Shown here: one piece after another, positions 7,400 through 8,836 of the stretch
Numbering within the stretch: position 1 is the stretch's first letter
Layout of the letters: every line of letters starts with the position of its first letter
Assembly (NCBI RefSeq): GCF_048403405.1
Contig: NZ_CP183129.1
Reading direction: 5' to 3' (one strand)
DNA from: Escherichia coli
GTDB taxonomy: Bacteria; Pseudomonadota; Gammaproteobacteria; Enterobacterales; Enterobacteriaceae
DNA length: 64,000 nucleotides
Position numbers and translations under genes: made by a program
The notes under the pieces: model-generated
What the model was told of the DNA's origin: nothing
Seen by the model: the letters and a program-made list of their open reading frames with translations, nothing else
The model's database searches: none

Positions 7400-8836
7400 T
7401 TATTGGCTTAACAGACCGTTTTTACGTGCCTGCTCTTCCCACTGCGGGATCACCGTTTTGATGAAGTCCTGCTTCTCGGCCTTGATTTGTTCCATGTTCA
7501 GGCCAATGGCCTTCTGGGCTTTCTCTTTGGTCGAGATATCCGGGATCTGGATTTCATGGGTGATGCCTTTGGTTGCCAGCAGTCGCGCCAGTTTAGTGCG
7601 CGCATCCGCCGCTTTATCCATCGCCGTACCGAGCATCCTCAGACCTTCTTCCGGTGCGTGCATATGAATGCCGTGGGAAGCGATCGCCAGATCCCAACGC
7701 CACTGGGCATGACGGATATCGTCCTGAATCGGCTTCATTTCGGCTTCCGTCGCGCCTGCATCCAGCGCCGCTTTCGCTTCGAAGTGAGCGTGAACCAGTT
7801 GATCTTCAACCTTGATTTTCAGGTCGTTAATCGACTGCTTACGTTCCGCGACCACTTTTTGCAAGGCAGCTTTGTCCTGGGTATGGCAGTTCGCACAAGT
7901 CTGGGCGAAGTTATCAAACGGATTACCAATTTTATGGTCGGTGTAGAGTTTGCCTTCGGCGTTCTGCACTTTTGGCATATGGCAATCGATACAGGTCACG
8001 TTGTTTTTGCCATGAATGCCCGCTGTCCAGGTTTCATATTCCGGGTGCTGCGCTTTCAGCATTGGCGTTTTCGACAGGGAGTTAGTCCAGTCAGAGAAGG
8101 CAATTTTGTCGTAATACTGCTCCATATTTTCGACTTTCATGCCGTCATCCCACGGGAATTTAACCGCTTTGTTTTTGCCGTCGAAGTAATACTCCACATG
8201 GCACTGACCGCAAACCATCGATTGCTGGTCGAAACGTCCGGCTTTCTCAAAAGGTTTACCAATGGCTTCCATCGCGCGAGCCGCATACGGACGGGAAAGG
8301 GTTAACTCCGGTTTGCCTTTGGCGAACTCTGGTGAGGCGGTGTTATGGCAATCGGCACAACCTAAGTTGTTGACGATTTCCGGGCCGCCGCGCGCCCATT
8401 TTCCGTGGAAGTAGCCATCTTCGCCGTCTTTCTGGATCAGACGCGCCACATCCGGGCTTTTACAACTCCAGCATGCCATCGGTAGCGGACCATCTTCAGC
8501 GTTTTTCGGCGCACCGGTGCGCAGGGTTTCACGCACATCGGTCACAGCAAAGGCATGTCCACGCGGCTTGTTGTAATCGCGCGAGAAGGGATACCCCGCC
8601 CACAGGATCACCAGCCGTGGATCTTCCGCCAGGGCGTCAACACGCTCTGACTGTTCCGAGGTGGCTTTCCAGGAGAGATATTGATCGGGATGTTGCGGGG
8701 CAAAGGTTTCATTCTTCGCTTCAACAGTTACAGGTTTTGCGGGAGCTGCCGTTTGTTCAGCGTGAACAGAAGTGAAAAAGAAAAAAGGAATCAATAAGCT
8801 GAAGATACGGCGTGCGTTTATTTTTATCCTTGTCAT
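7400..8836 (-). CDS. nrfA: NrfA, cytochrome c552 nitrite reductase
   Basis: Multiple CxxCH motifs plus the diagnostic CWSCK (CxxCK) active-site heme motif; start taken at ATG of [10 protein letters not shown] (478 aa), track ORF begins at an upstream TTG. Confidence 0.92.

Follow-up and report, generated by a model that had tools for sequence, protein, structure and literature searches.

The nrfA gene and its product

We analyzed a stretch of 64,000 nucleotides of Escherichia coli DNA, hereafter the window (NCBI RefSeq assembly GCF_048403405.1, contig NZ_CP183129.1). Its minus strand carries, at positions 7400 to 8836, the known and well-characterized E. coli gene nrfA, so the finding itself is correct but ordinary. 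The gene and the features of its product are the following.

7400 to 8836, minus strand: nrfA coding sequence, pentaheme cytochrome c552 nitrite reductase; RefSeq coordinates map exactly; 478-aa precursor, stop codon included
8759 to 8836, minus strand: Sec-type signal peptide, aa 1-26, cleaved before E27; from the chain start of PDB 1GU6 and n/h/c features
8459 to 8473, minus strand: CWSCK active-site heme-binding motif, aa 122-126, with Lys126 as proximal ligand; motif scan, CXXCK role from PMC12285233
8345 to 8359, minus strand: CADCH heme motif, aa 160-164; motif scan
8198 to 8212, minus strand: CGQCH heme motif, aa 209-213; motif scan
7979 to 7993, minus strand: CIDCH heme motif, aa 282-286; motif scan
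7883 to 7897, minus strand: CANCH heme motif, aa 314-318; motif scan

We established the identity of the gene by DNA and profile comparison. Positions 2000 to 9100 of the window are base-for-base those of E. coli strain TUM14771. Several E. coli chromosomes match a 1.8-kb segment with nrfA at 100% identity, and their annotation of it reads nrfA, with nrfB next. Because this segment occurs in 5415 of the 5426 complete E. coli genomes, the nrfA pattern is not due to chance. The ATG-form protein scores 872 bits against the NCBIfam equivalog NF008339 (cut-off 595) and 826 bits against TIGR03152 (cut-off 692.5), and it matches PF02335 with E = 8e-184.

The mechanical list of open reading frames (ORFs) gives a longer frame at this locus (7400 to 8869, minus strand), which starts at a TTG codon and encodes 489 aa; from the in-frame ATG at 8836, the product is 478 aa long. 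The sequence-only reading had described this same pair, a listed frame from TTG 8869 and a protein-like start at ATG 8836, and both the list and the translation agree with it.

NrfA contains exactly 10 cysteines, every one of them within the five heme motifs. The atypical CWSCK motif had been noted earlier beside standard CxxCH sites, and our scan confirms one CWSCK and four CxxCH. Numbered from ATG 8836, residues R106, K126, E215, Y216, K261, Q263, and H264 are all present. R106, Y216, and H264 are active-site residues of E. coli NrfA, and E215, K261, and Q263 belong to its Ca2+ site; a review that we searched for residue numbers such as Lys126 and His264 did not give them.

The amino terminus of the ATG form has the canonical regions of a signal peptide: an n-region with a charge of +4, an h-region with a mean Kyte-Doolittle (KD) value of 2.3, and VHA at the cleavage region. 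In PDB 1GU6, the mature chain opens with EQTAAP, whose E is residue 27 of the NrfA precursor. The claim that the ATG form carries a signal peptide therefore stands. Together, the sequence features and the 1GU6 chain start indicate that NrfA is exported to the periplasm with a cleavable signal peptide.

The protein is the counterpart of E. coli K-12 NrfA (b4070; cytochrome c552; PDB 1GU6 and 2RDZ), with the same gene, start, signal peptide, five heme motifs, and operon. One conservative residue difference separates the two proteins: residues 27-478 are identical to 1GU6 apart from residue 442, which is K here and Q in K-12 and the PDB chain. Across the operon, there are about 140 nucleotide differences from K-12, mostly silent. 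Nitrite-to-ammonium reductase activity is established in the literature for K-12 NrfA.

The nrf operon and the NrfEFG lyase genes

Downstream of nrfA lie six further nrf genes.

6789 to 7355, minus strand: nrfB, pentaheme electron donor to NrfA; RefSeq; NF008659, 310 bits
6121 to 6792, minus strand: nrfC, Fe-S subunit; RefSeq; TIGR03149, 419 bits
5168 to 6124, minus strand: nrfD, membrane quinol-dehydrogenase subunit; RefSeq; TIGR03148, 466 bits
3430 to 5148, minus strand: nrfE, CcmF-paralogous heme lyase subunit; RefSeq and profiles; probable CTG start at 5148
3054 to 3437, minus strand: nrfF, CcmH-like thiol oxidoreductase subunit, CPQC at aa 44-47; RefSeq and profiles
2461 to 3057, minus strand: nrfG, tetratricopeptide repeat (TPR) subunit (CcmH C-terminal/CcmI-like); RefSeq and profiles

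The genes nrfA to nrfG are on one strand and either overlap or are spaced by at most 44 nt, which places the lyase genes downstream of nrfABCD in one operon. The operon is flanked by the divergent acs upstream and by gltP downstream. We looked for a terminator-like site 3' of nrfG and found none.

Family profiles support the earlier description of nrfE, nrfF, and nrfG as encoding CcmF/CcmH-like proteins and a TPR protein. NrfE is a CcmF paralogue (NF007691, 1162 bits against a cut-off of 394) and has the CcmF architecture of the system I heme lyase CcmFH (PF01578 plus PF16327), with a W-rich WWD-type motif. NrfF scores 209 bits against TIGR03147 (cut-off 159), matches PF03918 (CcmH), and carries the CPQC motif. 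NrfG scores 399 bits against NF007692 (cut-off 306) and matches TPR_1, TPR_2, and PF23914, the CcmH/CycH TPR domain that it likewise has in common with the CcmFH system. These assignments are those of PMC12285233, in which NrfE counts as a paralogue of CcmF, NrfF as one of the N-terminal part of CcmH, and NrfG as CcmI-like. According to the same paper, NrfEFG differs from CcmFH in being a paralogous set specialized for CxxCK rather than CxxCH.

The sequence-only reading had also stated that these proteins are needed to attach heme at the lysine-ligated site. This holds on literature grounds: PMC12285233 gives NrfEFG as required in E. coli for CXXCK heme attachment and refers for this to Eaves et al. 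(1998) and to Hussain et al. (1994). In the pathway that we envisage, the general Ccm system would attach four hemes to the CxxCH sites of NrfA. NrfE (the CcmF paralogue), NrfF (CcmH-like, with CPQC), and NrfG (TPR) would attach the active-site heme to CWSCK, and Lys126 would serve as the proximal iron ligand once the heme is in place.

To compare gene order, we drew on 120 loci recovered with a back-translated NrfA motif scan (one genome per species) and took in those whose downstream sequence extends for 7 kb or more. The order nrfABCDEFG is kept in every such Enterobacterales locus and in Aeromonas, except in Pluralibacter gergoviae (locus L035), in which no NrfF was detected. NrfG also starts about 500 bp nearer to nrfE there than in E. 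coli (region about +3300 to +5500 downstream of the nrfA motif), which suggests a deletion that may have taken out the 3' end of nrfE together with nrfF.

Outside this group, nrfB to nrfG are absent within 7 to 14 kb downstream of the Vibrio, Shewanella, and Enterovibrio nrfA genes that have an identical motif. The solitary Shewanella loci agree with the statement in PMC12285233 that Shewanella lacks nrfEFG. Shewanella oneidensis NrfA (PDB 3UBR) is a homologous pentaheme protein with the same CWSCK (E = 5.6e-198). Its gene is not adjoined by nrfBCDEFG, and CcmF with CcmI serves the CXXCK site in that species (PMC12285233).

It could be argued from these genomes that nrfEFG serve cytochrome c maturation in a generic or redundant way and that CcmF/H alone could mature NrfA, as in Shewanella. 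Both the Shewanella and Vibrio loci, with the same motif and no nrfB-G within 7 to 14 kb downstream, and the maturation of S. oneidensis NrfA by CcmF with CcmI would fit such a reading. However, the requirement in E. coli is experimentally established, according to PMC12285233 with reference to Eaves et al. 1998. Furthermore, synteny of nrfE and nrfG with nrfA holds in each sufficiently long Enterobacterales or Aeromonas locus, and that of nrfF in all but L035. We therefore consider redundancy of nrfEFG in E. coli very improbable and retain a dedicated NrfEFG lyase. A different arrangement exists in Wolinella succinogenes, where the partner of NrfA is NrfH, not NrfBCD, and CxxCK is served by NrfI, a lyase of the system II CcsBA type. 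The W. succinogenes protein (PDB 1FS7) is homologous to the one described here (E = 1e-131) and has a CxxCK active site.

The nrfA promoter and leader

The 160 nt upstream of the nrfA ATG are identical in the window and in K-12. Landmarks of the pnrf promoter known from the literature could thus be mapped, together with two putative leader hairpins.

8929, minus strand: pnrf transcription start (+1), giving a 93-nt leader; placed with the promoter numbering of Godfrey et al. 2017 (PMC5434802)
8889 to 8920, minus strand: candidate leader hairpin 1, 11-bp stem, 10-nt loop; folding and conservation
8856 to 8874, minus strand: candidate leader hairpin 2, CGCCATTG-caa-CAATGGCG, with TTG in its 5' arm; folding and conservation
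8827 to 8829, minus strand: GGA of the CsrA binding site just 3' of the ATG (+101 to +103); PMC5434802 and sequence

The transcription start, the FNR site, and CsrA binding come from published work. The +1 falls at 8929 because p+102A of PMC5434802 alters codon 3 at its third position (AGG to AGA) and the FNR site is centered at -41.5. The FNR half-sites TTGAT/GACAA (TTGATtaaaGACAA) lie at 8964 to 8977, in agreement with this +1. Note that PMC5434802 prints the EHEC -10 element as TATACT, of which the TACACA at 8936 to 8941 of the window is not a literal one-change match; we assume that TACACT was meant.

The K-12 small ORF ytcB (b4821; 18 aa, MHLQLIKDNIHSVVICYT) is located at 8933 to 8989 on the minus strand, with identical sequence in the window. 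Lying within the pnrf promoter, it shares bases with both the FNR site and the -10 element, and its end is 4 nt short of the nrfA transcription start. Our literature search for E. coli ytcB returned only unrelated Bacillus papers.

We compared the leader across 10 Enterobacteriaceae sequences. All eight pairs of hairpin 2 are kept in 10 of 10 sequences, and four of them vary, with G-U-compatible changes only. In hairpin 1, 98.2% of cells are paired and 6 of the 11 pairs vary, on one side only. For both hairpins together, 98.9% of cells form standard pairs, versus 27 to 66% when the partners are slid by one to three columns. Variation thus touches 10 of the 19 pairs and is always one-sided and G-U-compatible, one pair running through the series GC/GU/AU. 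No double-sided compensatory change was found among the 10 sequences; in the covariation control, which had no double-sided changes to score, 316 of 500 shuffles reached the observed score. The claim of two hairpins is accordingly founded on the one-sided G-U-compatible changes and the slide control.

Folded alone, the whole 130-nt leader shows no excess stability over shuffled sequence (z = -0.86), so it is conservation, and not stability, that gives evidence of structure. A scan of the whole window at Rfam gathering thresholds placed no known RNA family in the nrf leader. The pairing pattern is suggestive: the 93-nt leader of nrfA would form two conserved RNA hairpins.

What such hairpins might do is a more tentative matter. 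Godfrey et al. 2017 (PMC5434802) describe the role of the conserved nrfA leader as unclear, and they report that CsrA does not account for all repression by sequences downstream of +10. We infer, with some doubt, that the hairpins may form an undescribed post-transcriptional control element in which the TTG is conserved as part of a hairpin; we rate this as a possibility more likely to be wrong than right. Possible roles include mRNA stabilization, holding the two GGA motifs where a CsrA dimer can bridge them, and the unexplained repression that sequences downstream of +10 exert in Salmonella.

The start codon of nrfA

The two candidate starts of nrfA are separated by a short in-frame segment.

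8837 to 8869, minus strand: 11-codon stretch from TTG 8869 to the ATG, untranslated leader; frame breaks, no Shine-Dalgarno (SD) sequence, and pairing

These 11 codons are almost certainly not translated, as the sequence-only reading had supposed. Five independent lines favor the ATG: annotation together with the family profile, comparison with orthologues, translation signals, accessibility (occlusion of the TTG by a hairpin), and the logic of the signal peptide. The frame breaks, the missing SD, and the poor accessibility of the TTG were determined here.

Annotation is consistent throughout. PGAP (RefSeq) and the curated K-12 MG1655 record both place the start at ATG 8836, no database annotation uses the TTG, and the NF008339 alignment opens at residue 5 of ATG-form NrfA. 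In Godfrey et al. 2017 (PMC5434802), the nrfA leader is untranslated and the ATG is the initiation codon, used as such in lacZ translational fusions.

The comparative evidence is decisive. The Met codon is conserved in 12 of the 12 Enterobacteriaceae orthologues aligned, and the frame from the TTG to the ATG is broken in 11 of them. E. albertii reads TTG CCT TAA, with a stop inside this frame. One extra base in the hairpin loop puts the TTG out of frame, and into a TGA, in Salmonella enterica arizonae, in seven of eight Citrobacter-type loci, and in Enterobacter. In an E. coli-like genome (L043), one nucleotide is deleted and a TAA stands in frame two codons 5' of the ATG, and Pluralibacter has no TTG at the position equivalent to 8869. 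The sole orthologue that keeps the frame is Citrobacter FP75 (L013), in which a second insertion restores it.

Features of the mRNA point the same way. The best anti-SD duplex 5' of TTG 8869 has an energy of +1.6 kcal/mol, worse than 97% of window positions, and there is no SD sequence. Upstream of ATG 8836, the value is -3.3 kcal/mol, a weak but real site (GGAUGAAG). In the partition function of the leader, the probability of being unpaired is 0.015 for the TTG codon and 0.89 for the ATG. The 11-codon extension itself is hydrophilic and acidic, which is atypical of a signal-peptide n-region.

Translation from TTG 8869, alone or besides the ATG, would yield a 489-aa precursor with a 37-residue signal peptide. 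The codon is in frame with the ATG in E. coli and lies inside the mRNA (+61), it is conserved as nucleotides in 11 of 12 relatives, and Citrobacter FP75, one orthologue of the 12, likewise has it in frame. The SD of the ATG, moreover, is weak, with an anti-SD energy no better than 30% of random positions. Against this, close relatives show that the frame is not conserved, with stops and 1-nt indels, and the TTG lacks an SD and would be sequestered in an 8-bp hairpin. That hairpin also accounts for its conservation: the TTG nucleotides are kept although the frame is not, because they sit in the 5' arm of leader hairpin 2. The hydrophilic, acidic extension and the unanimous annotation also weigh against such a start. 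We regard its use as highly unlikely, and translation from ATG 8836 is preferred. The TTG 8869 "start" is an artefact of the ORF list, which opens every frame at the first ATG, GTG, or TTG to follow a stop.

Two approaches do not separate the starts. The transcription start was rejected as a discriminator, as TTG (+61) and ATG (+94) are both on the mRNA. N-terminal proteomics had been proposed earlier as a check; this needs correcting, since the 26-residue signal peptide is removed (1GU6 begins at E27) and the mature N-terminus is the same for either start.

Under the preferred reading, the mRNA would start at 8929 (pnrf, FNR-dependent), nrfA would be translated from its ATG at 8836, and the 478-aa precursor would be exported by Sec and lose its 26-residue signal peptide. 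TTG 8869 would be simply the first permitted codon after a stop, kept as part of a leader RNA hairpin. We hold with great confidence the explanation as a whole, in which nrfA is translated from ATG 8836, its product is exported by Sec, heme is attached at CWSCK by NrfEFG, and TTG 8869 is no start.

The gene is already known, and the CxxCK/NrfEFG relationship has been textbook material since 1998. The value of this analysis is thus mainly one of annotation hygiene: the longest-ORF track over-extends nrfA by 11 codons, and the curated ATG is right. Modest by-products are a structural description of the conserved nrfA leader and support from relatives for a rare CTG as the start of nrfE.

The start codon of nrfE and other over-extended frames

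The true start ambiguity of the nrf operon is that of nrfE, not of nrfA. At the nrfD-nrfE junction (window 5088 to 5181, minus strand), the in-frame TAA at 5179 to 5181 is followed by no ATG, GTG, or TTG until the TTG at 5112. PGAP starts nrfE at CTG 5148 (572 aa), whereas the K-12 MG1655 record uses a GTG 20 codons downstream (552 aa).

Several lines of evidence favor the CTG. Two Citrobacter-type loci and Providencia have TTG as the codon equivalent to 5148. C. youngae and C. werkmanii have CTG there, with a stop just two codons before it. TIGR03145 and NF007691 align from residues 5 and 2, respectively, of the CTG-form NrfE, and a strong SD-like AGAGGTGG stands immediately 5' of CTG 5148. 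On this comparison, CTG 5148 is the probable, best-supported start of nrfE, a rare CTG start. The K-12 NrfE model probably drops 20 residues, including most of the first predicted transmembrane (TM)/hydrophobic segment (LPEVGFLALLLSLGV).

The ORF caller also over-extended two other genes of the operon on the minus strand. It opens nrfB at GTG 7361 and nrfG at GTG 3123, whereas the annotated starts are ATG 7355 and ATG 3057, respectively. The NF007692 profile has eight additional N-terminal positions relative to annotated NrfG.

Other elements in the window

At Rfam gathering thresholds, three RNA elements were detected elsewhere in the window, all on the plus strand.

18559 to 18699, plus strand: sraL sRNA, 153 bits
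58963 to 59112, plus strand: STnc430 sRNA, 78 bits
61007 to 61203, plus strand: lysine riboswitch, 99.5 bits

Near the nrf-acs locus, between actP and yjcE, lies espX5 (13551 to 14843, plus strand), which encodes a type III secretion system (T3SS) effector pentapeptide-repeat protein. Its coordinates follow from a 430-aa ORF and from the gene order in the RefSeq annotation of the identical strain.
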